A stretch of 64,000 nt of DNA from Sphaerodactylus townsendi (taxonomy: Eukaryota), in the NCBI RefSeq assembly GCF_021028975.2, contig NC_059428.1, forward strand, positions 138,942,001-139,006,000, given 5' to 3'. This document shows, in pieces, positions 1,057 to 57,100 of the stretch (positions are counted from its first letter, which is position 1; every line of letters starts with the position of its first letter). Below the pieces are notes generated by a model that saw only the letters and a program-made list of their open reading frames with translations, ran no database searches and was not told the DNA's origin. The position numbers and the translations under genes are program-made.

Positions 1057-8072
<7,016 letters not shown>

Positions 8073-10870: not shown

Positions 10871-11057
10871 CTGGGGGCAACACAGACAGCACAGCTGGTC
10901 AGAATGGCCTCTCGCTCCCCGCAACTGCTGCTTGAGAGGCTCTTTCTTCTGCCCCCCCCCCCCCCGGGAAGGGTGTGGGCAAGGAGGCACAACCCCTCTG
11001 AGTGTAGAACCCAACATTGGGTGGGTGGGGGGAGGCAGAAGAAAAATGATGGCGACT

Positions 11058-11350
11058 GAAGAAGAAGAGTTTGGAATTATACCCCTCCCCCTTTCTCTCC
11101 TGCAAGGAGACTAAGGGGCTTACAAACTCCTTTCCCTTCCCTCCTCCACAACAAACACTCTGTGAGGTGGGTGGGACTGAGAGAGCTCCGAAGAACTGCC
11201 CAAGGTCACCCAGCTGGCGTGTGTAGGAGCTCACAAGCTAATCTAGTTCACCAGATAAGCCTCCACAGCTCAAGTGGCAGAGCAGGGAATCAAACCCAGT
11301 TCCCCAGATTAGAGTGCACTTGCTCTTAACCACTACACCACGCTGGCTCT
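11058..11350 (-). mobile_element. Squam3-like SINE
   Basis: Reverse-complement family consensus with GAAGAAGAAG tail. Confidence 0.85.
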
Positions 11351-12850: not shown

Positions 12851-13040
12851 ATCGTCGAAGGCTTTCACAGCCGGAATCACTGGGGTGTTGTGTGGTTTCC
12901 GGGCTGTATGGTCGTGTTCTAGTAGCATTTTCTCCTGACTTTTCGCCAGCAGAAGATGCCAGCCACAGATGCAGGCAAAATATCAGGAGAAAATGCTACT
13001 AGAACACGGCCATACAGCCCGGAAACCACACAACACCCTG
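12851..13040. mobile_element. Penelope-like-derived inverted-repeat element
   Basis: GTCGAAGGCTTTCAC tail plus inverted arms; hammerhead core damaged. Confidence 0.8.
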
Positions 13041-13419
13041 ATGTATTAATAGATCTGTTAACATACACCCCCATGTTTACAGACTATTTGAACTGACAAT
13101 CCTCTGAAACTCCTTTCTTTATTCTGCGTCCAGACCTCTTTAATTGGGGACTCTTTATTCTTTGAGTAACCCGGAAAAATAATTGCTGGTCCCAGGCATG
13201 CTTTGGCCCTGGCTTGTACAAGCATCCCCCATAATCTTCTAGGGCAAGACCACCAACAGTTATCCTGTATTTCTGGACACATCTGTCACTCTTAATTTTA
13301 AGGAGGAATTGCAGCAAATCCAGAGAAAACTTCCTGCACCTCTGAGCCTGATCTAGAAAAAATAAATGCGACACCGCCTCCCGTCCTAAATGCAGCAACA
13401 GAAAAGAAGGAAAGCGGGT

Positions 13420-13960
13420 AAATAATGCAATAATCCCCTAACCGGCACACTCCCCCTTCCCCCGCAATGGGCGAGGCAGCCTTCGCCCTTTCAGGAGCGT
13501 TCAGCCTCGCCGGCATCTGCTCCTCCGCACCGACCGCCCCCGACCGCTCACTCCAGCCCGCGCTCCCGCCCGTTGTGTCGCCTTCCTCCGCCTCCTCGCT
13601 TGTTTTTCCCAGCCGAGCGCACCGCCTTCTGGGAGTTGTAGTTCTTGGGTGGGCGCTGCCGTGTCCGGCGCTGGGCGGAGGAACTCGCTTTCCCGTGGTG
13701 CCCCGCGCGCGAGCGGCCTGGGCTGAGCTACGGAGCCTGTGCGACGCCCGCCTGGCTTGGCCCTCCGGTCCCCCTCCGCCGCCGCCGCCACGATGGGCTC
13801 CCTGCTCAGCCGCCGCATCGCCGGCGTGGAGGACATCGACATCCAGGCCAATTCAGCCTACCGCTACCCGCCCAAGTCCGGTGAGCCCCGCCCGGGGGGA
13901 GAGACCCGAAGCCCCCGCTGTACCCCGTTCCCGCGAGGGGGAAAAAGAGGGGGTTCTGGC
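13420..13960 (+). promoter_or_regulatory. CpG-island promoter of MGRN1 with ZNF143/THAP11-type ACTACAACTCCCAG motif
   Basis: CpG-dense region around exon 1. GCCTTCTGGGAGTTGTAGTTC at 13624-13644 is the reverse complement of GAACTACAACTCCCAGAAGGC. Kozak-like GCCGCCACGATGG at the ATG (13793). Confidence 0.75.
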
Positions 13961-16900
13961 CGAGGGCTGCCATCTCCAGTTGGGAGGGGGTGACGCCAGA
14001 GAGCCCCCCCTCCCCAGCACCTCTGTCGCCTGGAGGTCAGGGGCAACTCCAGGAGATCTCCAGGCCCCACCTGGAGGTTGGCAACCCTGAAACACGGCAT
14101 TGAATGGTGACCAAGCGAGCCCCCATTCCCTCCGTCCTCCCACGGCCTCCGCCCTGCTGTGCCTGCCCCACCCCTCGGCATCAGCTACCCAACCTGTGCC
14201 AGGGGCGCTGGGGGGAGTGTCACTCATGGATGAGCTCGCTCGCTGCTTTCCTCCCCCATGGGGGGTCCAAAGCTGCTCGCGTCGTTCTCTGCTCTTCCAC
14301 CGCTCTCCTCACAACAACCCTATGAGGTCGCTTGGGCTGGGAGTGGCCAAAGGCTGTCCGGTGAATTTGTGACCGCAGGATTCGAACCTGGCTCTCTCAG
14401 ATCCTGGTGGACCTTCTACTCTGCTCTGGCTCTCTGGGGTTGCTTTGTTTTGGGAACGGGCCCAGGATGCCTCCGTCCCCTTTTCTGCACAGCCTCTTGG
14501 AGAGCTCCAGGGCTCAGGTGGAGGGGCCGGCCCGGTTGGTGGGCCTGGCTGGGTACCTCCCCTACCCCAGCCCCCTTGGGGATGCATCCCAGTCTAGATT
14601 GCCACCTCTTTCATAATAGAAAAAGCATTTTCTTGTGCAAGGACAAAGCCCCAGGGAGATGTGGAGGGACCCACTCCTGTGGCTGCTTGTTGTGTCTCCT
14701 GTGCTGACCCCCACCCATCTGTGGCCTTGCCACTGGTGTCCTGCCCCCAACATCCTGCTAAGTGGTGCAGATCTCAGGCATGTCAGGAGCCCTAAGCCTC
14801 TCAGCTTCTGGGCCCACTGGCCTCCCAGTACCTTTCAACCCAACCTTCGTGGCTTCCGCTGTCTTGCCCCATGGGTGTCGTTGGGGTATTTCCAATGGCT
14901 TTTTGACCCCCTTTCTCCAGGCAACTATTTTGCCAGCCACTTTTTCATGGGAGGAGAGAAGTTTGACACTCCACATCCTGAGGGGTACCTCTTTGGGGAG
15001 AACATGGACTTGAACTTCCTTGGCAACCGGCCGGTCCAGGTGAGCGTTCTGAAGTAAAAAGCGGGAGCTTAGTTGCCACCAGAAGGAATGGGGGTGGGGG
15101 TGGGGGAGGCAGCCAAGTTCTCCCTCAAATTCTCTGCATCTGATTTAATCCTCCTTAAAACAAATGATGCCATTTCACTTGCTTTTTCCTTTGTTTGCTT
15201 GTTTAAAGAAAAGGCCTCCCCGTTGCCTTGGCTTGTTGATTGCTATATTTCAGGGAACAGGAAGTACAAAATATATTTCCTGTAATCCCAGCAAAGCTAA
15301 TCATTTCTAGAACGTGTCCCCCACAATGCCCATTGGAACGTCAAGATGGTGGGCTTCCCTTTGGGAGGTGCGCTGATTTCCGTTGCCATTCAGCCTTTGG
15401 GTTTGTCTCTCGCCTCTGGACAAGTTCCCTCTTTGAAGCAAGTGGGGAAAGGGCTGCCTTGGTGGGGACTCATTGATGACTCTTGGGCTGCCCGTCTCCC
15501 TCGGCCTGTCTTTTACTCAAAATGGCTCCTGGTCTTTTATTCCAGTTCCCTTACGTAACCCCAGCACCTCACGAGCCGGTGAAGACGTTGCGGAGCTTGG
15601 TGAATATCCGCAAAGACTCCCTTCGCCTGGTCAGGTACGGCAGACACAGCGTCCTGGCTGTTCTGGTGAGGCAGGGAGCCTCGTCTCAAGAGTTCCGTTG
15701 GGGGTTCTATTCTGCTGCAGTCCAGGGACCTTGTGTAATGTATTGTCGAAGGCTTTCATGGCTGGAATCACTAGGGGGTTGTTGTGGGTCTTCCGGGTTT
15801 TATGGCCGTGTCCCAGTAGCATTTTCTCCTGACGTTTCGCCTGCATCTGTGGCTGGCATCTTCAGAGGATCTGATGGCAGTAAAGCAAGATGCCAGCCAC
15901 AGATGCAGGCGAAATGTCAGGAGAAAATGCTACTGGAACACAGCCAGACAGCCCGGAAAACCCACAACACCCTAGACCAGTGGTTCTCAACCTGGGGGTC
16001 GGGACCCCTTGGGGGGGGTCGAACGACCCTTTCACAGGGATCGCCTAAGACTCTCTGCATCAGTGTTCTCCATCTGTAAAATGGATACATGTTAGGGTTG
16101 GGGGTCACCACAACATGAGGAACTGTATTAAAGGGTCGCGGCGTTAGGAAGGTTGAGAACCACTGCCCTAGACCTTGTGTAAGTTGTTCATGTCCGTTAG
16201 ACGGCTGTGGTGCTTCTACTTACTACAAGGAGGCAGGTCTCTGCTCTGAGGAGTTTCCCACCACAGTTGTGACACTAGGGACGAGGGAGAAACAGCTCGG
16301 ATCCTGGGTGGGACAACATTCTCAGGAGTGTAAATAATAACTCCATAGCAAAAGGGAATGTCAATAAACTGTGCAGCGGGCAGACAAGGAGGGTTCAAGC
16401 TGCCTTGCTTTTTGCCAGTCGGGGGATGACGTGACCACTTTCAGCGGCCTGGAGCCTGGCGTCAGTGAGATGAAGGCCCGAGTCACAGAGCGCTGTCATT
16501 GGCCTGACAGCCAAGAATGAAAGGCCAGCGGCAGACCAGTCGGATTCAGACAGCACTCGGTGTGGGAAGAGGGAGGAGGCCAGCTGGCTGAGAAAAGATA
16601 GACAGTGAGGGCTGAGCCGAAGCACGCCTTCCAAGCCACACAGAAACTGGCTGGGGGGGGGTGGGGTGGGTGGGCAGGGGGGTCCCTTATGAGGATATCT
16701 GCGGCCGGGAAGGAACCATGGAGGCTTTGGAAGCACAAGGGTGGGCTGGAAGCCAGCGCCTGGATTTAAGGAAGAGCCACATGTGGGGAGCAGGGGGGAG
16801 GAGGAGACAAAAGACCTGACCAGTAGAATGCTGCTGGATAGAGGGAAGAGGTTGTGGGGTTCAGGGGAAGCGCCAGAAAGGCTGGGTGGAGCGCAGAGTG

Positions 16901-19900
16901 TTTGTGTGAAGATGGAGGAGAGGGTCCATGTGTGGCTCTGCAGGCGGGAGCGCAGGGCGCTGCTGTCTTTGGCACCTGTGGGACCCACTGGCCATGGCTG
17001 TGTGGAATGACGGCCCCTGGAGAAAGGGCCAGAGGCATCTGGGCAGGTGAAGATGTGGCAGCAATGAGGAGGGGCGATCCCCACCCAGTCTTGAAGAATA
17101 GAGTCCAGGGGTGTCAGGTGAGGCCTCAAGCCCTGATGTTTGAGGAATGGGAAAGAAGCATAGAAAGGGATTGGAGTGGCTCAGGAGCTGAACTCTTGGC
17201 CCAGGCGAGGCAGCCAGGAGTTAAACAGAGCCCCCCCCCCACTCCTGCTCCCTCTGCGTTAGGTACAAGGAGGATGCCGATAGCCCCACCGAGGAGGGTG
17301 GGAAGCAGAGAGCCTCGTACAGCCTGGAGTTCACCTTCGACGCTGACGCCCGCGTGGCCATCACCATCTACTGCCAGGCAACGGAGGAGTTTGTGAGCGG
17401 CATGGCCATGTAAGTGCCGGAAGGCCTTTCGCACCAGGGGGTGGTTTGCCACGGGGGTCCCCGGCCTTTTCGACCCCGAGGGCACCCTTGCAATGCTGAT
17501 GCGGGGCGGCGGCCGCTGCCAAATGTCAGGTCAGGCATAGCTTTAACAGAGACTCTTCAACATTTCCGGTAGAAATGCTACCTTTTAATATTAATATATC
17601 ACTTTAAAACATTTTCATGCGCACACACGTTTTTCCTTCAGTTGCATAGTCTGTACAGCCAGTCAAGAGCCCATCTGCGCCCACCCGCTTCCTAAAAAGA
17701 CTCGGTGGGTGCTAGGAAAGGGGTCGGTGAGTGCTGGGACACCCGGCCAGTGTGGTGCAGTGGGTAAGAGCAGCGGACTCCAGGAGTCTGAAGAACCGGG
17801 CTTGATTCCCCCTCCTCCACTTGGGCTAGTCACGGTTCTCTCAAAACTCTCTCCGGCCCACCGACCTCACAAGGGGTCTGTTGTGGGGAGAGGAAGGGAA
17901 GGAGTTTGGAAGCCCCCTTGAGTCTCCTTACTGGAGACAAAAGCAGGGCAGAAATCCAGACTCCTCCTCTTCTTCATGGACACCATGCAGGGTGGGGGGG
18001 TGGGGGTTCTGATTTATTGGAACCTTGGGGGTGGGGGAGGGGGATGGTCGTCTGCCTGTCAAGAGCTTCCTTGATGGAGGTCTTTTCCCTGATGGGGAGA
18101 TCATCTCAGCCCAGTCACGGGTGGAGCCTGGAGGCCTCGGGGGGTGGGATGGGGGGTGAGGGATGGTATGCGTCTGGTGGGATGGGGGGTGGGGAGGGTA
18201 CGTGTGCGCCAGCACTTCAGTGGGCTTTGGCTTGTGCTCGCCTGAGGGCTGGCGAGGGCCGGAGCCTGGCTTCAGGGGGCTGCCCAGAGCGACGTCCAGC
18301 CGGAGCCTCCTTCTGCCCCCTGCAGCTACAGCACCAAGAACCCCTCCCTGCAGTCGGAGACCGTTCACTACAAGCGTGGGGTGAGCCAGCAGTTCTCGCT
18401 GCCCTCCTTCAAGATTGACTTCTCCGACTGGAAGGAGGATGAGGTAACTCGCCTGCTCTTCTGGCCTCTCGTGGCTTGGGCGTGGCTCCTGGGTGGGTTT
18501 TCTTCAGAATCTTGGGATGGGAAAGAGAGTGGCTGGTGCTGAGTGGCTCTTTGGGCCTAGCCTCCCGGCCAGAAACAAAGGCTGCCCCTGGGCCCTGCTG
18601 GTGTGGCTGCCTGTGGCCAGCCCTGATCCCTGGGTTCCTGGCCCCGGGTCTTTGCCTCCACGACTGACGCCCTCTCTTTGCCCCTGTGTCCCAGCTGAAC
18701 TTTGACCTGGACCGTGGCGTGCTCCCGGTCGTCATTCAAGCGGTGGTGGATGAAGGTGATGGTAAGCTGGCGGAAGGGGGGGCTCTGTCATGATTCAGTT
18801 TCAGAAAGTGTGAGTGCACGGAGATGGCGAGGCCACGGAGCCACCCCTTCCTGTCTTGGGGAGGTCTGGGGCTCCAAAGGCACCTCTTTCAACAAGGATG
18901 TGCCCTATGCTCCAGCCTGCTGCGGAAGGCCCACGGCTTCCTAGCCAGTGTGGCATAGTGGTTAAGAGTAGGTGCACTCTAATCTGGAGAACCGGGTTTG
19001 ATTCCCCTGCCGCTTGAACTGTGGAGGCTTATCTGGGGAATTCAGATTAGTCTGTGCACTCCGCCAGCGGGATGATCTTGGGCTAGTCACAGTTCTTCGG
19101 AGCCCTCTCAGACCCACCCACCTCACAGGGTGTTGGGGTGGGGGAAGGGAAAGGAGATTGTCAGCCCCTTTGAGTCTCCTTACAGGAGAGAAAGGGGGAG
19201 TATAAATCTAAACTCTTCTTCTTCTAGACTAGGTCTGTGGGGGTGGGGAGCATTGCAGAGGATGCCCGTGGGAGAGCACTTGTGCCCCCCCCCCCCCCGC
19301 CTGTGGGGAAAGGCCATGAGCAGCTAAGGGAGCGTGCGATGGAGAGCTCAGGGCACCTTTGAGAGGGGAGGCTTGCTGGGGAGAATCTTTATCCTCAGAG
19401 AGTGGCCTGTCTGAACCGGGATGAAGACCCCGTATGGAGGACTGTACATCCCGTGAGTCACAGTGCGCTTGTTCTCATGTGCCACTGCAAACGATCCAAG
19501 CGCTTCATTTGTGCAAGAGAGTGAAATGCCCACAGCTCTCTCAGTCTGTCGTGACAGGGGATCTTTTTGTAGCAACTGAACGGGAATGCAGAGGCCACTG
19601 ATGGCCTGGTGCAGCAAAGAACGCCGCGTCTGCCTGGGTCCCGCAGGGCCATCGAGCCTAGTCTCCCTCCCCTCCTGGCTGGCCTGGGCTGCTGGGGAGG
19701 TGGGAGAAGGGGAAGATCTGTGCAGGCCCTTCTCGCTTTCCGTTTGTGATGATGGGAATCCCATGTCGGGGCTGCTGCGGGCTTCCCGCTCAGCTGGCAC
19801 AATTCTCCTCGGCCTGTGTTTTTTCTTCCAGTGGTGGTGGAAGTGACGGGCCACGCCCACATTCTCCTGGCTGCCTTTGAAAAGGTAAGAGAGGTTCTGG

Positions 19901-22900
19901 AGGGGGGGTATATTATGGGACTTCAGAAGCCCTCCCCTAGAGCTGAAGGCAGGGCGAGCACTGACCTTGTCCCTAAAGCAGCTGGGTCTTTGGAGGGGGG
20001 GGGCGGGCAGAGGTGCTGGAGCGCTGGAGAGGGAAGTACCCCCAGCTGTAGCCAATCCTCCTTGCCAGGTGACTTTCCTCCTTCTCAAACCCCCCCCCCC
20101 CCCCCCCCCCAGCCTTCAAATGGAAAACCAGCAGCCGCTGCGGTTTCTGAGCTTGGAAGCGAGCTTTGTTGGCCTGCGGGCTCAGTGCATCTGTACCGTG
20201 ATTCTGAGGATCAGTGTTTTGGGGTGGGTGGGGGATGGGGGATGGGGGATGGGGGGGGGCTTCCGGTGTTGTGGAGCAGTGCTGATCTCCTTCCTCTCTG
20301 TCTGGGGGGGCCCTGCAGCACGTCGATGGCAGTTTCTCAGTGAAGCCCTTGAAGCAGAAGCAGATTGTAAGTCCTGACGGATTGAACTAAAATATTTATC
20401 AGCTGCCTTTCCTTTTTACGGAGCTGCTGGCAGCTTTCAGTGGCAACGAAACCTGTTGAATAGATCACATAAAAACCATTGAGCCAAAATTTAAAACAGC
20501 AGCTTCAGACTTCCCGTTGGGTCAGTTCCTGGTTTGGCTGAAATTTTAGGTGCCTCTCCAGGGAGGCCCCCGGACATCCCCCCCCCCTCCCCCAGCGATT
20601 GGTCTGCCCTCAGAGGGTTCCCCTGAGCACGTCTGTTTTGGCTTCACAAAGGATCTTGCAGGGAGCTAAATCACAACTGAGCAAAGTGTGCCTCGGGTGG
20701 ACGGGTGGGGTGGGAGACTGGGGGAATGGAATTTTTAAAGGGAACCTCCATGAAGGGCGGTCGGCGGAAGGGCTCCGTGGGTCACTTGTCTGTGGGTACC
20801 GCTGGCTGATCTGCTTATGGGAGGAGGATGTAAACGTCTCATTCTCTCCACCACCACCACCCTGCCTTCCCAGGTGGATCGAGTCAGCTACCTGCTTCAG
20901 GAGATCTATGGCATCGAGAACAAGAACAACCAGGAGACGAAGGTGAGGAGAGGCGGCCGCCGGCCCCCGAGCTGGAGGCTGGAAGAAGGCCGCGGAGTGG
21001 TGGGGGGAGCCCCTTTGCACAGCCTTGATCTGCTAGATGCCCTCCGAAGCAGAGGATGCACGGCAGGGGCTGCCCCGTCTCTCGCTGCTGTTTCGGGGTG
21101 GGTGCAGGAGCCAGTGGGGTGTTGCGATTAGCTCACTGGACCCAGTAGGGGACACCTTTTTTGGCCTCCCCTCCAGGGGAATGATGAGAATGACATGGGG
21201 AGGAGAGGAGAGAGGACGCCTGGGAGGAGGCAGGGCAGTGCATACGTTTGACAGGCAGATGGGGAACGTGAGCAGAAACAGGCAAAGGGTGACAGTGGAG
21301 GAGCTGATGCTCGGGGAGGGGATGCGTGCTGCCTCTTGCGGTGCCCCAGAGAGGTCTCAGGGAAGGTCCCTCCTCCTTGCAGCCCTGTGACGACGAGAAC
21401 AGTGACAACAGCAACGAGTGCGTCGTGTGCCTCTCTGACCTGCGGGACACCCTCATCCTGCCCTGCCGGCACCTCTGCCTCTGCAACTCCTGTGCCGACA
21501 CCCTGCGCTATCAGGCCAACAACTGCCCCATCTGCCGCTTGCGTGAGTCGGGGGAGGCGGCCTCTTGTGCCAGCTGCTTTCTGCAGGGGGCTCTGCTTCC
21601 TTGGTTCAATGAGCACCGGCAGCCTTCTTGGCTGGAGGTTTCAGGGCTGGAAGCCAGTCCCGTTTCTAGTTCTGGGCTGGCTGGAGAGGCGGAAGGCCCT
21701 GACACGGCAACGGGTGGCTCACAGGGATCTCAGCCCTGCCCGTCCGTGCTGGTAGAGTCCAGGGCTCCCCTTGACCACAGGACAGCCGTCTTTCCTCATC
21801 AGTTTGGGGGGGTTCCGAGGTTCCCCCAGATCTTTCTTGAGCCTGGGCAGCGGCCAAGCCAGTGGTCCCGTCCGGGAGCCTTGCGATGCCGAAGGTCCGA
21901 GTGTCGCTTGTCCTCCCTCACAGCATTCCGGGCCCTGCTGCAGATCCGAGCAGTGAGGAAGAAGCCCGGGGCTCTGTCCCCCATCTCCTTCAGCCCCGTC
22001 TTGGCGCAGACGCTGGACCACGACGAACACTCGGTGAGGAGCCGCTCCAGGCCAACGTCTCGTGGCAACGGCCTTGCAGCCCTTGGTCTTCGCAGGGTGG
22101 GGTGGGATACAGTCAGTCGCTGCCTTCAGCTTATTGGGGAAATGTTGCCAGTGTTGGGGAAGACCCTTGAGGTGAGCCGCTGCCCCTGAGAGCGAGTGAG
22201 GTTGAGCTAGGGGGACTGAGGGGCCCCAGAGACGTCTCCGTGGGCTCAGCAGAGCGAGCTGTGGTGTGTGTTGAGGGGGGCTTGTGTCCTTGTGGGTCGT
22301 CAGGGGTTCTTGGCCGTGGCTGAGGAGACTGGGACTTTTGCTGCGGAGTCCTGCCACAGCCTCGGGCGAGAGGCCCCTTGAATCATGGTCAACCTACTAG
22401 GCCCGTGGTGGTGAACCTTTGGCACTCCAGATGTTATGGACTACAATTCCCATCAGCCCCTGCCAGAATGGTCAATTGGCCATGCTGGCAGGGGCTGATG
22501 GGAATTGTAGTCCATAACATCTGGGGTGCCAAAGGTTCACCACCACTGTACTAGGCAGAACCAGGCAGCCAAGGAAACATGCTGTGAAGATAGCAGAGCG
22601 AAAAGGGAACGGGCTCCACCCGTGGTCAGGAATTGCTGTTTGATCTTGAGAGCCCCTGGGTTGGGTTGGGGGTCAAGAGCATGAGATGGCAGCGGTGCCT
22701 CCCCCAGGCTCAGTGGTTCTGGAGGTGTTCCTGGGTCGGGCTGGGGGTGGGAGGTCCAAGCCAGGGTGAGCCAGAAAACCCAGCCGTGAGGAGGGGGCAC
22801 CCTGTCTCGCTCTCCCCACAGTGTTCGGACAACATTCCTCCCGGCTACGAGCCCATCTCCCTGCTGGAGGCGCTGAACGGCCTGCGCTCTGCCTCGCCTT

Positions 22901-25900
22901 CCCTCCCTTCTGCTCCCCTCTACGATGAGATCACCTACACCGGGGTGCTGGACGGGCTCCCCCCGACCGGAAGGCCTCTCGTGGGGCTCGACCGAGCCAT
23001 GGAGAGCAGCCATCAGAAGAGCAAGCGCAGCAAATCCCCTGACAGGTGAGCGGCCTGCGGGAGAAAGCCAGGATCCCTCCGTGCTTCAGGGTGGGTGGCG
23101 GGGCAGCTCTTGCCGGGCCTTGCTTGGACTCTGCCGCTCTCCTGCCCCCATGAGGAGGGCCTGAGGGGTTTCTGAGCCCACTTCCACCCTGGGGTGGGGG
23201 CTGGTTTGGAAGGGATCGTCTTCATGCATGTTCAGAGTCCGAGGGGTATCTGCTGGAACCCTGCAGTGTTGGTCAGGAGAGGACAGAATTGAGTTCCAGT
23301 AGCTGTCCCCTCCCCCGCTTCTCAAGCATGAGGCCCGAACGCCCTTGCAAGGGCACAGCTCCCAACCTCCTCTTACCCTCTGCAGCACCCTCCGGTCACC
23401 TTCTTCACCAATCCACGAAGAAGACGAGGAGAAGCTATCAGAAGACTCTGAGCTGCAGCCGCCGCTGCGAGGGACGGAGCTTATCCTGTGCGAGAGCAAC
23501 TCCCCAGAGGTGAATATCTCTTGCACACGCGTAGCCCTGGCCGTCCTCTTAGTAGGTGGCACTTGTCCAGACCAGCTGCCCCATGAAGGTAGAACAGCCA
23601 GTTGCCCACTGTGGGGAAACTCGTGGCTGCTGGGTCTCTGGATGCCCCACAGAATTGGGGCTGTGGGTGGGGGTGGCCACAGGAAGAGCACCTCTCCGCC
23701 GGGCCCTGCTGAGTTCTAGTCATGCCTGCAGTTGGAAGGGAGGATCCGGCGAGGCCCTCACTCTTTCACCTGGATCCAGGCCTTCAAACCTGGCTGGGGA
23801 GCCATCCTTCTGGCCAGCACCGTTGCCTAAGAAAGGGGCCAAACGCTTCCCTGCTCCCGCCCCCCAAGGGGTTGAGCTGTGCCAGGATGCGCCACCCGCA
23901 GCTGAGCCTTGGAGGGGCCACTGGTGCTTTTTGTCCCCTTGGAAGCGTATGTGGAACCGGCTTCCCAACCCACCCCCCAGCCTTTTGCCATCTTGTTTTG
24001 GTGTGGGTGGTATGGTATGGTAGATTTAATGTATATACCACCCTCCCCCGAAAGGCTCAGGGCAGTGCTCAACAGCATCATCACAACATCAATAAACATA
24101 ACATCATAGAACAACCATCAATAAATGCATCAATAACATAGGGTCAATAAACATAACATAATTCTCACAATATTAGAATCAGGGAGCATTCATTGAAAAT
24201 GCTGGGGGGAAGAATTAGGACTAATAAAAGGAAACACTTCTTCATGCAACGTGTGATTGGTGTTTGGAATATGCTGCCACAGGAGGTGGTGATGGCCACT
24301 AACCTGGATAGCTTTAAAAGGGGCTTGGACAGATTTATGGAGGAGAATTCGATCTCTGGCTACCAATCTTGATCCTCCTTGATCTGAGATTGCAAATGCC
24401 TTAGCAGACCAGGTGCTCAGGAGCAGCAGCAGCAGCAGAAGGCCATTGCTTTCACATCCTGCCTGTGAGCTCCCAAAGGCACCTGGTGGGCCACTGCGAG
24501 TAGCAGAGTGCTGGACTAGATGGACTCTGGTCTGATCCAGCAGGCTAGTTCTTATGTTCTTATTGAACAACCATCAATAAATGCATCAATAACATAGGGT
24601 CAATAAACATAACATCATAGAATATATAAACATCAATAAATGCATCAATAATATAGGATCAATAAACATAACATTATCGAAGGCTTTCACGGCCGGAATC
24701 ACTTGGGTGCTGTGTGGTTTCCGGGCTGTATGGCCGTGTTCTAGCAGCATTCTCTCCTGACGTTTCGCCTGCATCTGTGGCTGACGTTTCGCCTGCATCT
24801 GTGGCTGGCATCTGTGGCTGGAGATCCTCTGAAGATGCCAGCCACAGATGCAGGCGAAACGTCAGGAGAGAATGCTGCTAGAACACGGCCATACAGCCCG
24901 GAAACCACACAGCACCCAAAACATAACATTGAACAACCATCAATAAATGCATCAATAACATAGGGTCAATAAACATAACATCATAAATCATAACATTGTA
25001 CAACAACCATCAATAAACACATCAATAAATATAGGATTATAACATCATAAACATAATATCATATAGCAACATTATAATACCAATAAAATCCATACAGTAC
25101 AGAAATAATAGAATATATAAACATCATAAATACAATTAAACCAATTCAGACCAGTTTACCATGAATTAACAACAATTCAATAAACAGATGGCGTCACCAT
25201 ACAAAGGAATCCGAAGGTAAATATATAGCCATGCCTATTAAACAGCATAGGCAGTAGCACTGCATATTAACTAGTAGAAAAAACTAATAATAACTAGAAA
25301 ACTAGCAATAACCAGGAAAAAACTCCCAAAAAGCCAGTTTGGACAGAAGAACACAGATGGGAAAAAGAAAGAAAGGGGAAAAAAGAAGAAAATTATAGAA
25401 AGGAGGGGCAACCTGGACCCATCTGCCCCCCAGCATCCAGATACCTAGATCCACCTAACTACCTCCACCTAACTAACTATCTGTCTGCGTCCCACAAACT
25501 ACAAAATTAACTAACTACTAACTACTAGTCAATACTTTCTAATTACCTAGAGTGTATTGGCAGAAGTTGGGTGGGTGGGCGGGCCGGCGTCATTGCCTAG
25601 GCACTTGGCAGGGGCAAGATTATCATGTTCTGTTTCTGGGTGGCAGAGCGGGCGCTCTTTTGCCGCTGTGCCCTGTTCACTCCTTGCTTGACGCAGGGCG
25701 GCCATGTGGGGATCGGGGCGAGTTGGGTTTCTGTGCTGCCGCTCTGCCCTTTCCTTGTTGCTGCCATAACCACAAACAGGCGGGCTTCAAGAAGGTTTGC
25801 AGGGGACTTTCTCCCCTGGGGAAGCCGCCACTTAAAAATCACCTTGCATTAAAACCAAACCACAGCCGTGCAACAGAGGGAGAAAGAGACAATGCTTCCG

Positions 25901-33717: not shown

Positions 33718-35450
33718 TCAAGCTTCCCAGGGCGCCATCCCGAGCAGGAAGGTGTCGGCGAAGGCGGGCTCCTCGTCCAGGCCCCAACTGGCCCCCAGGG
33801 GCGGCTCCTCCCCGGCTTCCTCCCACGGCTCAGTCAGAGGCTTCGAGGAGCGCAGCACCAGGTCCTCCTCCTCCTCGTGCTCCTGCTGGGCCGGGGGAGT
33901 GGTGGGCCGGGCCGGGCTCAGGGTGCCGAGGGGTGGCGGGGGGATCAGGCCGTCGAGGGCTGCACTGAGCTCCAGGTCTTCGCTGGCAGCTGCATCAGCA
34001 CCCTCCAGCCCCAGTGCCCAGCTGAGCTGGCCCCGCAGGACGGCTGCCTCCTGGCTGAGCTCTGCTGCGGCCCTCCGAAGTGTAGCCTGTGGGCCTTGGC
34101 CTCTTCTGGCCCTCCGAGGGCACCCCCGTCTGGTGCCGGCAGCAGCAGCCGCAGCAGAGGGCAGGGCTGGCATTCGCTTCCGTGGCGTCCCCCCGTTGGT
34201 CAGCCTGCCCGCGAACTGGGGGTTGAGCTGCCAGAAGCCCCCTTTGCCAGGCTCGTCCTTGCCCCGCGGCACCTTCTGGAAACAGCGGTTCAGCGACAGG
34301 TTGTGGCGGATGGAGTTCTGCGGCAGACAGACAGAAAGACAGGAGGCTTAGCAGCAGGGGGCAAGAGGAAAGGAGAAGAAGTGCCCTTCATATCCGGCCT
34401 TTCTCTCCTAAAAAGAGCCTCGGACAACCTTGGGCCAGCCCAACCTACTTCACAGGGTTGTTGTGAGGATAAAGTGGAGGAGAACACTATAAGCCACTTT
34501 GCATTCCCATCGGAAGAAGAGAAGAGGGGTTTGGATTGATATCCCTGCCTTCCTCTCCTGTAAGGAGTCCCAAAACAGTGTACAAACCCTTTCCATGCTT
34601 CTCCCCACAACAGACATCTTGTGAGGCAGGTGGGGCTGAGAGTTCAGAGACAACTGGTCACCCAGCAGGGTCCGGGTGAGGAGCAGGGAAACAAATCTGG
34701 CTCACCAGATAAGACCCTGCCACTGAAGTGGAGGAGAGGGGGAATCAAACTCAGAGTGGGTTAATGGGTGCCCAGCGCATGGCTGAACAAGTCTCCGGCA
34801 GAACCAGCCCAAGGGATTTGGGAGGCAGCAATGCGGCTCCTGGCTGGCCTCTGGCCACAGCCGTCTCTCCCACCCCTGCTGAGGCAGCAAGCGACCCACA
34901 AGGCCCCTTAACCTTGACACAAACTGCTACCCCGCCCCCCACCCCCCTGCAGCCCTTTGCCCCACCCGGACTGCCCGTTATTCACCTGCCAGCTGGGCTC
35001 TGCGTTGCGGTAGTAGCAGAAATTCTCCATGATCCAGGAGTAAATGGAGGCGAGGGTGAGCTTGGCCCCTTGGGCGGCCTGCATGGCCATGCAGATGAGG
35101 GTGGCGTAGGAATAGGGAGGCTTCGCCCGGGCATTGGTCCTGTAGTCGACTGTTCCAAGAGCTGGCAGGGGAGGCTGCCAGAAGCTGGCGCTGGAGGGGG
35201 TGAACTTGCCCGTGCTTGGGGGCATCCCCTGGCCGGCTGTGTCTCCGGCTGGAGGGCTGGCTGGGCCGTAGCAGCCCTGAAGGACCCTTGAGGGCCCAAG
35301 CTGGACAGAAGCGGAGGGTGCCTCCGGGTCAGCAGGGAGGAAGGAGAACTCCTGGAGCCACTGGAGGTTGGTGAGGCTGTCGTCCGGAATCCCGGCCCCA
35401 TGGCCCCCCTTCCAAGCCCGCAGGTGTGCAGGTGAGCTGCGGCTGGCCAT
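33718..35450 (-). CDS. Forkhead box J1 paralogue (foxj1.2/foxj1b-like), 354 aa
   Basis: Exon 35450-34986: [74 protein letters not shown]|gtgaat. Exon 34317-33718: [49 protein letters not shown]1-specific N-terminal motif and WQ|NS intron position are present. An upstream acceptor at 35492-35494 implies a non-coding first exon. Confidence 0.92.
34430..34755. mobile_element. SINE fragments in the FOXJ1-like intron
   Basis: CORE-like piece (+) followed by a Squam3-like copy (-). Confidence 0.6.
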
Positions 35451-36234
35451 GGTCCGTAGCCCCGAGCCCCACCGGGCCCTGCTTTCTCCTGCTGTGAAGC
35501 AAAGAAGGGGTGGGCGAGACGAAGGCGACGGCTGCCTCGGGAGATTTCCTGCAGGGCCTGAGACAAAAGGGATGCTGTAGCTGGCCTCCCCCCCTCCCCC
35601 GCTGGATTCGGTTACCTGTGCTCTCTTTGCCAGAGCCTTGCAGCCGCCCGCCTCTTTGGGAAGCGGCTCCCTGGGGACCAGCGATCCTGTTTCCGAGGGT
35701 GTCCAGATGGCCACAGTCGAGCCAGGGTTCATGTTCGCCTTCATTAAGGGAGTGCGAGGCTAAGCCTATTGGGCTGCAACCTGAGAAGGCCCAGGGTGGG
35801 GGGATCACAGCTCCCCCCCATGGACTAGCTAGCTGACAAAAGGCCAGAGGCAGCTGCAAGGCCCAAAAGGTATCTTTTGGCTTCTGAGAAACAGCCGTGG
35901 GTGGTGGTCAAACCACCTGAATCATTCATGTGCGTTTGAGTCACCTGGAGGGATGTGCCCACCCCAGCCCACTGCTCTGGCCCACCTTCTGCCCCCCTTG
36001 CTGTGAGCTGCAACGTTTCTGGACTGGGCCTTGCAAAGAACAACCACCGCCAAAGAAGTCTCCTCCGGGCAAAGGAGGGGGCAATAAGAGCCAAGGCGAG
36101 TCCCTGGTTGAAATGCTGGGCCGAAGGATGAGAAAGGAGCAGGCCAGGGTGGCGGGAGGGCAGGTGTGAAGTAGTCTCTCCCCCCTCCCCCCCCCAAAGG
36201 TCTTGAGGCAGGGAATTGCCCGGAACACCAGGGA

Positions 36235-36328
36235 TGAGACATGACTCTTGGCCTGGCCCTTGAACACACACCTTTCACAGGTGAGACATGACTCTTGGAC
36301 TGGCCCTTGGACACACGCCTTTCACAGG
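36235..36328. repeat. Tandem duplication, 2 x 47 bp
   Basis: TGAGACATGACTCTTGG(C/A)CTGGCCCTTG(A/G)ACACAC(A/G)CCTTTCACAGG at 36235-36281 and 36282-36328. Confidence 0.9.
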
Positions 36329-37400: not shown

Positions 37401-38199
37401 CTATGCAACCTTCAGAGCACTTAATCTCCTCGCTAAAAGCATATGTTCTTCCTACAATACTTAAAGATCTGTTCTGGCTCCTTTCTGGCAGCTGCCTTTC
37501 CCAGCCTCCAACTCCGCCTGATTTATTGGTTGTCGCCTCCCTTTTGGTCAGTGATGGAGCCAAGGAATAGTTTCAGTTTCCTCTCCACCAGCCTTGCATT
37601 TTGCCTTCTTGGTGATCAGCTGTACTCCTGCCTTGGCACTTTCTGCTTTTAATTTTCTTCCGCAGTCGTTTCAGGTCGTTGCTGTTTTCCAACTGCAATG
37701 TGATGTTATCTGCATATTGTTTTGTATGTTCTTATTATTTTACATTCTGTATTGTGTTATTATTGTTGTTGTTCACCGCCCTGAGCCCTGTGAGGAAAGG
37801 CGGGTGATAAATCAAATTATAAAATAAAAAATAAAATGGATATCTCAAATGGTTAATGTGTTAGGTTGGCTCCCCACGCTGTCACCTAAATCCAAACCAG
37901 CTCACCTTGTGACATGTTCTTCATACAGACTTAAGAGATGGGGACATCAGATGCATCCCTGTCTGTTGCCTTGGCCCTTCGGGAGCCACTCTGTTTCTCC
38001 ATATTCTGTCCCCACCCACTTCCAATAAAACCGGACAATAGTTTTGTGGAAGGGTTTCACAGCCGGATTCAACTGGTGGTGGTGGATTTTCCGGGCTGTG
38101 TGGCCGTGGTCTGGTGGATCTTGTTCCTAACGTTTCACTTGCATAACCAGGCAGTAGTTTTTCTCCAGTCCCTCACGCAGACTACACTTCCCAAAATGC

Positions 38200-38720
38200 A
38201 CAGCGCGGCCAGCTACACCCCCCCCCCCCCCATGGGCGGTGTAGGCTGAAGTGCGAAATAACCTCCCTAGCCAGCCTCCGGCCTGCTCAGTTCTCGCGAG
38301 CACCATTGACTCGGCCTCCCTCACTCCGCCCGTCCATTGGGAGGCCGGCCTTCGGTGCCCTTCCTCAGCCGCTGGCCCTGTCCGGCTTGAGTGAGCTGAA
38401 GCGGGGCGAGGTCCTCTGGCTGGAGCCCCGCCACGCTCTTCGCCCGTATCTCGCTGAGGGACGGAGCCGCAGAGGCAGTGGGGCGGGGCCAAGGGCAGCA
38501 GGGGGCGGGGTTTCGCCGAGGGTCCCCCGTGGCCGCGCCGCGCCGCCTGGCCCACCTTGGATCGGGCTGTTCTGGGTCGTGCTCTTCCCGGTGGTCTCCC
38601 TGGCCCGGGCTGAGGCGGGGCCTGGCCTCGCATGTGGCCCGGCCGACGGCACCCCTCCACGCCACAGCTGAGCTTGCAGGAGCTCCGCTTGCTGCTCTCC
38701 CATGGGCGGGAGGTGGGGCA
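38200..38720. promoter_or_regulatory. CpG island between the FOXJ1-like gene and the NAA60 3' end
   Basis: CpG-dense; TCTCGCGAG at 38292-38300, ATTGG (CCAAT) at 38336-38340, GC boxes GGGGCGGGG near 38479 and 38502. Confidence 0.6.
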
Positions 38721-42751: not shown

Positions 42752-45700
42752 TCACATGGTCCGGCTGTATTCAATGCTGCTCTTTGCTGAGATACTTGAC
42801 CACGGTAAAAGGCTGCAGAGGAGGCTCTGGGCTTGGCGGTAAATCCGCTGAGGAATCGTACAGGGGCTCAGACTGGCCAAGGCTGACCCAATGTGTTGGA
42901 GGTAATCCGTGCGCTGCCGTTAAGGAAGAGAACAAGGAGGACTGGGACAGACACAGGGGAGGGGCCACTCCTGCTGCACTGAACACGTTGACATTTTGCA
43001 CATTACACAGGGACAAACCAAAATGTTCTGCTGTGCCCCCAGAGCACACCCCATGGAGTCCCTCTTTTCTTCCAGGTCTTGCAACCCCACATCCAGTGGG
43101 ATGCATCCCATTCAGACTCCCAAGCCCTCTGTTTGCAGACCGCTGGGCAAGATCCTCTTCCCCCAGCTCCACTCGGGCTTCTTGGGACTGCACTGCTCCA
43201 GACGCAGCCCCATCACTAGCAAAGGATATAAGATTGTCCAGGGAGGGTGCCCGCCGTTGATGTACAGGACGTAAGTGAAGCCATCTTTGAGTACGCCCCT
43301 GATGGAGTAATAATAGGGCAGGTAGTGGTGCTGCTTGAAGTCTCTGTTCTCGTAGAAATTGATTGCGGTGTTGTTGGAGGTGAGGACGTGCAAATAGATG
43401 GCTTTGCAGTGGTCCTGGGCTGTGCTGGAGATGTGGTCTTTCAAGCTTTCCAGCAAGAGTGAGCCTGCCACAAGAGGGGACATGTGAGAAACAATGGGGA
43501 GCCCCGCCAGCACCCCCCTCCTCAGGGCTGGGCCAAGAACGTTTCCCCATTATGCATCTTGCCAAGAGGATGCAGACAGCTCAGGGGCTGCCAAAGGCCT
43601 GCATGAAAATCTGCACAGTGAAGCCCAAACCTCTGGCCAGATGCCATGCTGTGGAAATGTTTCCAGCTATTTTACCAGCACACTACATCTGGCAGAGCGA
43701 GCCAAAAGCCGGGCTCCTGAGGAGACCTGCCAAAATGTGAGCACCTTCCCCCTGCCAAGAACTGCAGGGCGATTTTATACCAATCTTCCTTAATCAAACT
43801 GCACCTTGAGGGAGCTTCAGCTCTGGCTGTGCATCTTTGCTGTAGACACAGAAAAGGCTTCCAAGGAATCTTACTTTTCTTTAAGGAAACAAAAACCAGG
43901 GAGGGAGGAAGCTTGTTTTCTGCTGCTCCAGAGACGAGAACCAGGAGTGACGGGTTCAAGGTGCAGGAAAAGAGATCCCACCTAAACATCAGGAGAAACT
44001 TCCTGACCTTCGGGGCTGTCTTGACAGTGGAATTTACTGCCTTGGGAGTGTGGTGGAGTCTCCTTCTTTGCAGGTTTTTAAAGAGAGGCTGGGTGGCCAT
44101 CTGTCAGGACTGCTTGGATTGTGTGTTCCTGCAATGCAGGGGGTTGGGCTTGCTGGCCCTTGGGGGTCTCTTCTGACTCAATGATTCTACCTCTGCGTTA
44201 TGACCCTGGACTTCCTTCATGTTCTCTCCTAACCAGGGCTGACCTCGCTTAGCTTCTGAGATCAGCTGAGATGAGGCTACCTCTGGCCACCCAGGTCAGG
44301 GCATGTTATTCCCTCTTTGATAAGACTTTTTTTTTTACCCATTTATCTGGGATAAACAAAGTAACCAGTCTAGTCATAGTTTTTGCTTCTAACATTTCGC
44401 CTGCATCTATGACTGGCATCTGAAGTGTGGAAAACCCACAACAGTCACTAGATTCTGGTCATGAAAGCCTCAATTAATCAGTCTAGCTTCCCAGGATCTT
44501 CTAGATCCCTTAAAAAATTGGCATGCAATTTGTTGTCTTTGTCTTCTAGCACAAAGATCAAATTTCAAATAGCCCATCATGTGGGAAACTGAGGCAGAAC
44601 AAAACAACCTTCGTAGCACAGAAATGATAAGGAGCCATTCAGATGTGTTAGTGCTCAGGATGTGAGATGATACCAGCCCACAGACAGCTGAGCAAAGGAA
44701 AAGGCCCTTACCGATGCCATGCTTTCGGAATTCTTTCACCACGCCGAGGCTTAAAATGTAGGCCACTTGAGTATCCACAGGAAAGCTGGAAGCCAGAATG
44801 TCACCATCCTAGAAAGGGGAGCGGGGAACCATGTCAGAGGTCAGACATCAGCACCCAGGCTCTTCTGCCTTGGGTTCATTTGAAAAAAGAGATTCCCTGG
44901 CAACAAAATTGAACCATCTGGAGTAAAACAGAACTACCCTCATCCTTTACCCAGTGGATAAAGACTGTGACACCCTTTTCTGATGAGACTGTATTTGGAC
45001 AGACTGTTATGTTGTGGGACATCTAGCGACTGGGTCTGAAGGCAGATGCTGACTTAAAACAGATGACAATTACAGGGTAAGAGGCAACCTTTGGCCAAAG
45101 GCGATCAAGGGGTGCATGTCTCCTCCAGGAGAGGGGCCCTTGGCCTACCTCTTTGTGTACTTTTGTCCGACTCTTGATCTCGGCTACTATCATTCCCACA
45201 ATGAGGCCTCGGTAAGTGGCTGCCAAGGAGAAAAACTTCTTGTTCGAAGTGATGTCCCGATACCATGAGTCAGGGTACCTGGGGAGAAAGCAAACAGAGA
45301 CAGGGAGGAGGCTGTTGACAAGTCCAGGCTGGCTAATGAAAAAGAGAGCCGAACTCTCGGAATAATGAGAACTAGGAGGGGAAATGTTCTGATGCTGTGC
45401 GGGACTCCCTTTCAAGCACTGTAGCTCTCTTGACTCAGATGGGTCCTCCACAGACACTGCCTGATTGTGGCAAACTGGCCAGGATGATATAGTGGGGAAA
45501 AGGAGTTTGGGTTCATATCCTGCTTTTTTTCACCACAAGGAATCTCACAGTGGCTCACAAACTCCTTCCCTTCCTCTCCCCACAACAGGCAACTTGTGAG
45601 GCAGGTGGAGCTGAGAGAGTTCTGGAGGAGCTGTGACTCTTTTAAGCATGTGGAGGAGCCAGGAAACAAATCTGGTTCACCAAATAACAGTCTGCTGTTC

Positions 45701-46071
45701 ATGTGGAGGAGTGGGGAATCAAACTGCCAGATTAGAATCTGCCACTCTTAGCCACTACACCATACTTGTTTCACTGTGGGGCAGGGGGTATCATCACATG
45801 TCCTTGGGCCCTTCCTATAGCCCTCTTCCCACCCCAAACCCCCATGTATCCCCAAACTGAAGCTCAGGATTGCCTCCGCTCCTCTGTACAGCTCACCGGA
45901 TTTCGTGGCCTTTCTCCCTCCTGACACCCCTCCCAACCCCAAAGCAAGGACTGTTACATACTCTATTGGGAACCAATCGCCGCAAAGCTGCTTGACCATG
46001 TCTATGTCATCATGGCACAGAAGGCGGAGGCTGATCTCACTAAGTGCAGTCGGGGGCACCTCCTCGGTCAT
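42752..46071 (-). CDS. NAA60: N-alpha-acetyltransferase 60 (NatF), 242 aa
   Basis: Exons 46071-45962 (MTEEVPPTALSEISLRLLCHDDIDMVKQLCGDWFPIE), 45278-45149, 44808-44712 (YILSLGVVKEFRKHGIG), 43464-43230 (KAIYLHVLTSNNTAINFYE..GGHPPWTIL), 42908-42752 (DYLQHIGSALASLSPCTIPQRIYRQAQSLLCSLLPWS..SRTM*); total 729 nt. A 3'UTR intron starts 7 nt after the stop (donor 42744). Confidence 0.97.
42909..43229 (-). other. NAA60: U12-type (minor spliceosome) AT-AC intron in NAA60
   Basis: 5' splice site ATATCCTTT (43229-43221), branch point TTCCTTAAC (42927-42919), 3' end ..GCAC (AC at 42910-42909). Removing it restores the frame (TT|G GAT = L D). Confidence 0.95.
43900..44190 (+). mobile_element. CR1 LINE 3' fragment
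   Basis: LFSAAPETRTRSDGFKVQEKRSHLNIRRNFLT in ORF 43829..44176. Confidence 0.8.
44190..44305 (-). mobile_element. 5S rRNA-derived SINE head
   Basis: Minus strand GATCTCAGAAGCTAAGCGAGGTCAGCCCTGGTTAG resembles 5S rRNA. Confidence 0.55.
45500..45765 (-). mobile_element. Squam3-like SINE, degenerate
   Basis: Reverse-complement family consensus. Confidence 0.65.
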
Positions 46072-54119: not shown

Positions 54120-57100
54120 TCAGCGGATGGGCCGGTAGGGAAAGGCCATGCCTGGTATAAAGGTCTGCACGGGGTGTGCGGGAAGAGCCGGGTGTGCAGG
54201 CATGGCAGAGTGCGCTGTGTGAGTCGGATAGCCCAGCGGGGGCGTGTGGATGGGGGGATAAAACCCCGGCGGCAGAGCAGCATGGGCTGGCTGCTGGACT
54301 GGGCCCGAGACCACCAGCTGGAGCAGGCTGTGAGGGAAGGAGAGAAGGAGGAAAGAGTCTAGACAGGCACAGACAGCCTGAGCAATGGGGCTGCTGGGAT
54401 GCTTCCTGTTGAGGTACTGGTGGCCGGGCACTGGGTGGGTAACTGTAGGCCACCAGCAGGTAGAATCAAAGAGTGGGAAGAGACCACTAGGGTCATCAAG
54501 TCTAACTCCCTGCAATGCAGGAACACACCATCAAAGCACTCCTGACAGATGGCCATCCAGCCTCTCTTTAAAAACTTTCCAAAGGAGGAGACCACCACAC
54601 TCCCAGGCAGTGAATTCCACTGTCGAACAGCCCTTATTATTAGGAAGTTTTTCCTGACGTTTAGATGGAATCTCTTTTTTTTCCACCTTGAACCCATTAC
54701 TCCTAGTCTCTGGAGCCGCAGAAATCAAGCTTGCTCCCTCACCAACATGATATCCCTTTAAATATCTAAATACGGCTATCATGTAACCTCTTAAGCTTTT
54801 CTTCACCAAACTAATCACACCTAGCTCCCTAAATCTCTCCTCGTAGGGCATGGACTCCAGGCCTTTTACCATTTTGGTTGCTCTCTTCTGGACCTGTTCC
54901 AGTTTGTCAATATCCTTCTTGAATTGTGGTGCCCAGAACTGTACACAATATTCCAGGTGAGGTCTAACCAGTGCAGAATAGAGAGGCACAATTACATCCC
55001 ACGATCTAGATACTATACTTCTATTGATACAGCCCAGAATCGCATTGGCTTTCTTGGCCGCTGCATTACACTGCTGACTCATGTTCAGTTTGTGGTCTAC
55101 TAAGACTCCCAGATTCCTTTTGTTAGTAGGAAAGGTTGAGCTGGGAGCACCCAGCAGAACAAAACCGCCTGCTACAAACCAGCATCCAGGGGAGAATGCC
55201 CAAAGGACAACCTCTGTGGCCACCACAATATGCCAACTAGGAGCTGGTGCTAAAGCATACATGGCACTCTAGCATCCCTGCTCAAATGGGAAGGGGCAGG
55301 ATGCTTCCTCCCTCGCCCTCTGGGGAGAGGCTGAGTGGCAGGTGCCCTTAGGAAGCACATGGCACCATTTACAGCTGTAAAGCACCAGCTTCCTTACTTG
55401 TTGTGCGGCAGTCTGGAGCAGACGGTCCGGAGGTCCTCTGAAAGAAAGCAGAAAAAAGTGAGGATTTAGCAAACATCTGCCACGGGGCTGTTCCCTTTTT
55501 TGGGGGGGCGGGGGGGGGGCGCTTTTCAGCAGAGGCTTCCTGCACTGAACTGCTTGCTCAGTGATGACTGTGGTGCATGGCCTCCTTGGATGCACTTTCA
55601 GGGAGGTCAGCTCGAGCAGGTATGGGAACGATCTCTCAGTCGGGAGCATGCCTAGACAGACCCGGATTTCTCAGGGGCTTGGGCTATGCAGATGACGGGA
55701 GAAGGGAAGGGAATGGGCTGCTTCTGGGCCTGTTTTAAGGATGCTGGCAGGCATGAGCACTGAGAAGCAGAGTTGCGGCAGAGATGCAGACTACCCAGTT
55801 CAGCTACTGCACAACTGTCGCAGCTTCCCAAGATGGCAAAGAGCCTTACTGGCACGCAGTCATGCTTCACCCAGGAGGCTGTTCCTGGAGAATGCTGCTG
55901 CAGGCCCTCCTCCTACTCCTCCCAACTCCCACCACGTGGTTTCCTCTGCCCGGGGCACAAACCTCTTGTGCACAGCAACGCTCCGGCTGCCATGGCCACC
56001 TGCAGGGTTTGAGCCAGCCGGTCCAGGGCCAGCTCCACCTCTTGGGAGGCGTTTAGTGGGTTGAGTTCGTCAGAGAGCCTGCTGATGTCATCCACGAGAG
56101 ACACCACCACTTGGTCAAAGGGCACCAGCCCCAGGCGGCCATAGAGGTTTTTCTCCGTCAGGTGACCTTGCAGCAGCATCAGAACCTGCAAGACACTGAG
56201 GTGCAGCTTGGAGTACAGAGGCTGACAGTCTTTGTCCGAGGCTGCGGCAGTGCCCTTGGCGAGCTTGCCGTTGAGGTGGCCGTTCGTCAGGGCGGGCTTC
56301 CTCCGTTTATACGCCAGGGGGGCTTTCACACACCAGCAGATCAGGCCGCTGAGAGGGGCGAGCTCCAAAAATCCAATTGGCAGGCTGGCCGCAATGGGCG
56401 TGTTCAGGAAGGTGATCAAGATCAGGCGGGGGTCTTCGAAGATCCACGAAACGATCATCTCCAACAAGTCTGGAGGGGGGATGAGGTCATCTGGAAGGAA
56501 GGGAAGCACACCTCTAAAGCAGCTGCTGTCAGCCCCACAGGTTGTGTCAGCTCTCAGGAGGTTCACAACCCCTTTACACCAGACATTGAACCTGTGTACA
56601 CATTCAAGGCCCCAAACCCCTTTCTTCCGGCAGCAGAAAGAGGGGCAGCGAGGCAGCAAGAGGAGCTCACACGGTAGGGTTGGACTCTATTCCAGCCCGG
56701 GTGGGCTCAGACACGCCACTCTCTGTACGGGCTCCCCCTTCTCTTTCTTCCCCCCATCCCCCGCCTCTGCCAGATGATCCCCCCACAGTCTGAGCTTTCT
56801 TGCAGTGCAGGCCCCCTCCAGGAAAGATCGTAACTCATGCTATCAGCCTAATCTACCTCACCGGGTTGATTCAAAGGTAAAATGGAGAGGGGGCAAATGT
56901 TGTACACCACTTTGGGTCCCACTGGGGAGAAAAGTGGGACATAAATAAAGCCCACAAATAAATATTGTAGAACTTGAGCACTCTTATGCAGAAAAACCCT
57001 TCCATGCACAATGCATGCGCTGCGCCCGCTGGCACCGTGGGGCTGGGAAATTACCTGAAGACATGTCATAAAGCACAGTGACTGATGTGATGAACTGGCA

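Follow-up and report, generated by a model that had tools for sequence, protein, structure and literature searches.

The foxj1.2 gene and its chromosomal setting

The window, i.e., the whole 64-kb stretch of DNA analysed, lies on C4 of the gecko Sphaerodactylus townsendi and contains, in this order, a DUF4795 gene (+), MGRN1 (+), foxj1.2 (-), NAA60 (-), and INTS15 (-). The features are as follows:

2872..4983, plus strand: DUF4795 gene, two exons, each below the Pfam cut-off
13793..23043, plus strand: MGRN1, start codon to last exon verified, continuing further 3', tail to tail with foxj1.2
33718..34317, minus strand: foxj1.2 coding exon 2, residues 156-354 plus stop (600 nt with stop)
33721..34032, minus strand: C-terminal acidic and aromatic region, residues 251-354, with four family motif blocks (alignment)
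34210..35123, minus strand: forkhead DNA-binding domain, residues about 110-191, across the intron (Pfam PF00250)
34318..34985, minus strand: foxj1.2 intron, GT-AG, phase 0, split at WQ/NS (668 nt)
34986..35450, minus strand: foxj1.2 coding exon 1, residues 1-155 (465 nt)
35343..35384, minus strand: N-terminal FOXJ1 motif, residues 23-36, 13/14 identical to canonical FOXJ1
35451..35744, minus strand: in-frame upstream extension of RefSeq isoform X1 (452 aa)
43115-46071 and 55916-61519, minus strand: NAA60 (by eye from open reading frames) and INTS15 (Pfam PF14964)

The frame of foxj1.2 encodes 354 aa without internal stops and has a strong start context. It is identical, letter for letter, to RefSeq XP_048348609.1 (database protein P0003), which is named "forkhead box protein J1.2-like isoform X2" in S. 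townsendi. Gene model and RefSeq identity together confirm the initial annotation in its description of an intact two-exon gene for a 354-aa forkhead protein, with the FOXJ1 motif and the WQ/NS intron. The RefSeq isoform X1 carries 98 additional N-terminal residues, which are missing from most orthologues; this upstream extension is probably 5' UTR or intron, and about 45 nt 5' of the conserved ATG there is a candidate splice acceptor. Exon 1 is also covered by DNA contigs from four public runs, with no indel and no stop. Since these contigs run on into the intron and the upstream DNA, they are uninformative on expression; the Logan-derived reptile foxj1.2 proteins looked at are single-exon pieces.

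A CpG-rich stretch with possible minus-strand splice donors is found at 38150-38700, 2.7 kb upstream of the foxj1.2 start, and is a candidate promoter; it harbors a ZNF143-like motif, a TCTCGCGAG element, and CCAAT boxes. At 36252-36300 there is a short tandem duplication where 47 bases are missing from the contigs of three public runs out of four, reflecting either a length polymorphism or a collapsed repeat. Regular expressions for RFX X-boxes gave no match near foxj1.2 or canonical FOXJ1, but these patterns are narrow, so the result does not count as evidence.

The DUF4795 gene of the window is presumably C16orf96, NAA60 is a putative assignment, and the names RNF157, UBALD2, QRICH2, and C16orf96 follow the human map. 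In human, UBALD1 precedes MGRN1, and NUDT16L1 is found at the position where the gecko has NAA60 and INTS15. UBALD1 was found neither in 144 kb around the window, where the region lacking it is 5000-13800, nor genome-wide with the first exon of UBALD2 (one candidate scored); it may have been lost in this gecko or be missing from the assembly. The position of the forkhead gene beside MGRN1, also proposed beforehand, is established by exon matches to human MGRN1, one exon being 34/34 identical (PDB 9qru_D) and another matching with an E-value of 1e-23. Outside the window, 22 kb upstream of it, a gene with a LITAF domain is found.

According to the comparative accounts cited, the order cdip1, f100a, mgrn1, foxj1, rhbdf1, mpg is kept in gar and coelacanth (PMC4259306), in both of which UBALD1 precedes MGRN1, teleost foxj1b sits in the mgrn1 neighbourhood (PMC9670116; bioRxiv 10.1101/2024.03.26.586788), and FoxJ1 and Mgrn1 paralogues are linked to globin loci (PMC2975663). 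The pairing of MGRN1 with foxj1 is ancient and already published for fish. Directly after foxj1.2 the conserved block breaks, with NAA60 and INTS15 there in the gecko versus rhbdf1 in fish.

Origin of the gene pair and its taxonomic distribution

Canonical FOXJ1 is found elsewhere in the same genome, at C3:119660321-119674342. It encodes 445 aa and has a 12.7-kb intron at the position shared with foxj1.2. No other forkhead in the genome reaches the FOXJ1 level (65% over a 55-aa query, the next reaching 54%, with 42 candidates scored). A RING exon with 93% identity to the MGRN1 exon of the window is found 46 kb away from canonical FOXJ1; the RING gene preceding FOXJ1 has exons matching those of MGRN1 in order and strand, and a UBALD gene and a DUF4795 gene lie beyond. 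The separate RNF157-linked FOXJ1 which the initial annotation had proposed looking for is thereby present on C3. Two blocks can be paired, namely DUF4795 gene, MGRN1, foxj1.2 on C4 and DUF4795 gene, UBALD2, RNF157, FOXJ1 on C3. The MGRN1/RNF157-type and DUF4795 pairs are in the same order on both, while foxj1.2 is inverted relative to its RING neighbour MGRN1, unlike FOXJ1 and RNF157.

The RefSeq models of canonical gecko FOXJ1 have 486, 475, and 456 aa versus 445 aa for the two-exon model used here. The latter length agrees with that in other geckos, and those of RefSeq may contain additional sequence.

The main tree comprises 69 proteins chosen among several hundred retrieved so as to span taxa, with no FOXJ2/3 rows (IQ-TREE, bootstrap/SH-aLRT). 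In it, gecko foxj1.2 is nested with four other geckos (100/100), then within a group of 14 squamates (100/100) and one of 19 reptiles (100/100), inside a foxj1.2 clade of 35 rows (100/100; 13 rows with a support of 99 in a smaller quick tree). Besides the 14 squamates, turtles, and crocodilians, this clade includes Danio foxj1b, Xenopus foxj1.2, caecilian, newt, lungfish, coelacanth, and three cartilaginous fish. The C3 gene groups with the FOXJ1 proteins of birds, mammals, and lizards and with fish foxj1a in the canonical clade (26 rows, 98/90), and gecko foxj1.2 falls outside it; a placement within it, combined with the lack of an RNF157-linked copy, had been named beforehand as the evidence against a distinct paralogue. 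Gecko foxj1.2 is the orthologue of zebrafish foxj1b and Xenopus foxj1.2. Several gecko rows of the tree have an atypical amino-acid composition able to bias trees.

Both clades hold cartilaginous and bony fish, with the invertebrate rows outside and the canonical shark row on a long branch; the presence of cartilaginous fish in both places the split between FOXJ1 and foxj1.2 before the jawed vertebrates, and the position of the invertebrate rows places it after the divergence from invertebrates. Two lamprey genes group with the foxj1.2 clade (99/94) on long branches, hinting at the first genome duplication. With a clade spanning sharks to lizards, foxj1.2 is no novelty of lizards but likely the sister of FOXJ1 produced by a genome duplication early in vertebrates. 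The 35-row clade and the paralogous neighbourhoods uphold the initial annotation on this origin and on the orthology with foxj1.2/foxj1b. Hoffmann et al. in 2012, on the globin paralogon, and Aamar and Dawid in 2008 may already state this ohnology. The ESM Atlas search yielded FOXJ1 and J1.2 clusters only, with taxa at phylum level.

That the gene is instead a canonical FOXJ1 relocated beside MGRN1, or a recent reptile duplicate, is hardly conceivable. A 2026 brain atlas does label the lizard FOXJ1 pair, that of Pogona, as a small-scale duplicate (PMC13489949 supplement, 11 of 13 supplementary files searched). Against this stand the separate canonical copy on C3, to which foxj1.2 is only 37% identical overall, and the 69-protein tree; a squamate-specific duplication is moreover rejected by the AU test (p 1.5e-9; 30-row quick tree, squamate copies forced together).

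Scleropages, eels, and a mormyrid (P0040, P0042, P0067, P0074) seem to keep a second foxj1b-type gene, and one extra teleost copy of this type is placed in the foxj1b clade as a long branch. The extra gene of these early-branching teleosts probably comes from the teleost duplication.

Named foxj1.2 members are found in geckos, lacertids, an amphisbaenian, a cordylid, a skink, iguanians, a varanid, turtles, and crocodilians, and the gene is further present in amphibians, lungfish, coelacanth, sharks, and ray-finned fish. Being annotated and this widespread, it does not represent the unusual retention initially supposed, which was overstated. No bird, mammal, or snake foxj1.2 was seen among the best 120 of 416, 120 of 1127, and 150 of 14097 matches; diverged lizard copies (e.g., Anolis) also fall outside the best 120 of 1127. 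Snakes have no foxj1.2 among the matches listed, though snake canonical FOXJ1 is in the same collection. These searches suggest that foxj1.2 is missing from birds, mammals, and snakes, the case of snakes being the least secure. According to published counts, zebrafish, pufferfish, and Xenopus have two FoxJ1 genes and chicken, human, mouse, rat, and cow a single one (PMC3493443); a second tabulation assigns three genes to lamprey, two to lizard, and a single gene each to human and mouse (PMC13489949 supplement).

Database names mislead on second-copy retention, since proteins that carry the name "J1-B" or "FXJ1B" in birds and snakes are canonical FOXJ1 (P0149, P0283, P0324, P0325, P0335, P0488, P0505; tree or 90% cluster). 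The bird "J1-B" proteins were rejected as second copies, five lying in the canonical clade and 96 of 96 further matches being best to canonical FOXJ1.

Architecture and divergence of the protein

The DDSLTxLxWL motif of the FOXJ1 subfamily is present at the N-terminus of the gecko protein, and the Pfam Forkhead domain scores above cut-off in both exons separately. The recognition helix is intact and unchanged relative to canonical FOXJ1, and the two gecko forkhead domains are identical at 64 of 91 positions. The AlphaFold model exhibits a winged helix with a pLDDT of about 90 over the forkhead domain, the remainder being of low confidence. The second basic cluster, KRKQ, is absent in all five geckos checked.

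With 354 aa versus 445 aa, foxj1.2 is 91 aa shorter than canonical gecko FOXJ1, mostly in the post-forkhead linker. All four C-terminal motif blocks of the family can be aligned, and DTFL..PWE aligns with the final motif of the family, not with the internal DETF..HPW of canonical FOXJ1. As this is the last conserved family motif, foxj1.2 is not truncated within the activation region: the initial annotation correctly saw a divergent C-terminus stopping after DTFL..PWE, but the shortened activation region which it supposed is not borne out. Every one of the 19 squamate proteins checked (geckos, lacertids, amphisbaenian, cordylid, skink, iguanians, varanid) has the same W-x-x end, two residues past the last tryptophan. 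Among non-squamate orthologues, 19 of 21 end seven residues past it, which makes the gecko protein only five residues shorter. By comparison with human FOXJ1, the C-terminal acidic and aromatic region is likely an activation domain. Acidic residues account for 21% of the last 110 residues versus 19% in canonical gecko FOXJ1, and the acidic and aromatic content of the two tails is equal.

It had been proposed that a shorter activation region might make foxj1.2 a weaker competitor of FOXJ1, and a weak or dominant-negative protein sitting on FOXJ1 sites without activating could be imagined from the missing 91 aa and from a human FOXJ1 frameshift which, replacing the last 45 residues, is described as dominant-negative (PMC10485651). 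That human change is, however, much larger than a five-residue shortening, and the loss or replacement of the C-terminal activation region that marks the class of dominant-negative truncated forkheads is not seen in foxj1.2. Zebrafish foxj1b, moreover, is reported to activate as well as foxj1a (PMC8524669). With the C-terminal motifs and the acidic content kept, a competitor role is highly improbable.

The sequence of foxj1.2 diverges fast. Its identity is 62.8% to Paroedura, 53.7% to Anolis, and 51.4% to Pogona, versus 95.1, 92.8, and 93.7% for canonical FOXJ1 in the same pairs, and the branch lengths are 0.64 for the squamate stem, 0.36 for the gecko stem, and 0.35 for the foxj1.2 tip versus 0.011 for canonical FOXJ1. 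This divergence is unevenly distributed: against 16 orthologues, 66-72 of 91 forkhead residues and 11-14 of 14 residues of the N-terminal motif are identical, while the post-forkhead linker is 19-52% identical. At the level of the protein sequence, conservation focused on the motifs and the forkhead domain indicates purifying selection. GC3 is 79% versus 53% for canonical FOXJ1, and regional GC 54% versus 44%. Weaker constraint on a gene in a GC-rich region is the likely cause of the fast evolution of foxj1.2 in lizards.

An intact but weakly expressed duplicate, under relaxed selection in lizards and nearing the apparent loss in birds, mammals, and perhaps snakes, would also account for the low orthologue identities, for a GC content like that of loss-prone "elusive" genes (PMC5901865), and for the lack of snake foxj1.2 among the matches listed. 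All three exon-1 coding differences among the four public DNA runs are non-synonymous (V49I, N106D, M141V), a weak hint of relaxed constraint given that 68% of transition sites are non-synonymous and that there are only three variants; these sit, however, at columns variable among orthologues. Decay would not spare motifs for so long, and full length, motif blocks, and W-x-x end are kept in 19 of 19 squamate proteins, which makes this fading unlikely. A lizard-specific new role, such as a sperm-flagellum or testis programme with changed partners driving the fast evolution, is very unlikely. The long squamate stem followed by a new C-terminus fixed in all 19 squamate proteins would fit such a shift, but rates are high throughout squamates, which is better explained by relaxation than by a one-off change. 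The zebrafish evidence, furthermore, favours the ear, the nose, and brain cells with a single cilium, and the word "sperm" is absent from PMC8524669.

Proposed role and comparison with known systems

By analogy with zebrafish, gecko foxj1.2 probably serves to activate cilia genes in some of the ciliated cells, in partial redundancy with FOXJ1, from which it would differ mainly in its sites of expression, with a bias to sensory and single-cilium cells. It would bind the same forkhead sites as FOXJ1 and activate through its acidic and aromatic tail, while canonical FOXJ1 would carry the essential role in multiciliated cells. The likeliest sites, as judged from foxj1b, would be inner-ear hair cells, olfactory neurons, and single-cilium cells. 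Zebrafish foxj1b mutants are reported to be viable, with otolith defects and loss of the single cilia of the forebrain, and foxj1a mutants to die, the two genes overlapping in multiciliated cells (PMC8524669; review PMC11545745). When overexpressed, foxj1a and foxj1b induce cilia equally (PMC8524669), and foxj1b is the copy found in olfactory neurons and required for their cilia and markers (PMC10810531). Canonical FOXJ1 is listed as an ependymal marker in a table for the Pogona brain, which contains no entry for the second copy (PMC13489949 supplement file 11).

A broader and tentative reading, which we consider possible but hold at somewhat less than even chances, is that reptiles split the cilia programme, with foxj1.2 serving sensory and single cilia (ear, nose) and FOXJ1 the multiciliated cells, and that foxj1.2 was lost independently in mammals, in birds, and perhaps in snakes, both jobs being merged into one gene. 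Were this so, reptile studies with a single Foxj1 probe would have missed half of the system, and lizards would offer an amniote test case for the merging of the two FOXJ1 jobs. A chameleon left-right study reports one FoxJ1 probe, its electron microscopy and Dnah11 data standing independently (PMC10126504); "foxj" is absent from the main text of the chameleon genome preprint PMC11398420.

The gene itself is already known: RefSeq annotates it, and its orthologues in fish and frogs have been studied. As a gene foxj1.2 is ordinary, its modest interest being that of a neglected, fast-evolving amniote paralogue which reptile cilia studies can overlook. In the literature searched, largely outside subscription journals, no paper came up that deals with a second foxj1 of reptiles or with the disappearance of this copy from birds and mammals. 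The zebrafish pair is not restricted to fish, the foxj1b orthologue being kept in lizards, turtles, and crocodilians; foxj1b being orthologous to reptile foxj1.2, human FOXJ1 has its true orthologue in foxj1a only.

Among known systems, foxj1.2 resembles "elusive" ohnologues such as FoxG2 (Hara et al. 2018, PMC5901865) in its retention in reptiles and fish, its apparent absence from birds and mammals among the matches listed, its fast evolution, and its GC richness. Faster protein evolution and higher GC than in the retained paralogue, two traits of such genes, are both found in foxj1.2, and "elusive" genes are described as usually expressed below their sister paralogue (PMC5901865). The main text and 12 of the 19 supplementary files of that paper do not name foxj1.2, nor does "foxj" occur in four supplementary files of PMC10208646; the files of either may use gene ids.

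With canonical FOXJ1 (human, mouse, bird, zebrafish foxj1a, the gecko gene on C3), foxj1.2 shares the two-coding-exon plan, the intron position, the recognition helix, and the acidic tail. It differs in being linked to MGRN1 instead of RNF157, in its opposite orientation to the RING neighbour, in an intron of 668 nt versus 12.7 kb, and in evolving several times faster in lizards.

The closest counterparts are zebrafish foxj1b and Xenopus foxj1.2 (FXJ12_XENLA, FXJ12_XENTR), which belong to the same clade (100/100), display the same motif order, and match the gecko forkhead domain at 71/91 and 72/91 positions, respectively. The linkage to MGRN1 is likewise shared by gecko foxj1.2 and fish foxj1b, as described in PMC4259306 and PMC9670116. 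The gecko protein has 354 aa versus 442 in zebrafish and 371 in Xenopus and ends five residues earlier, the KRKQ cluster kept in zebrafish foxj1b is missing, and the squamate proteins are far more diverged.
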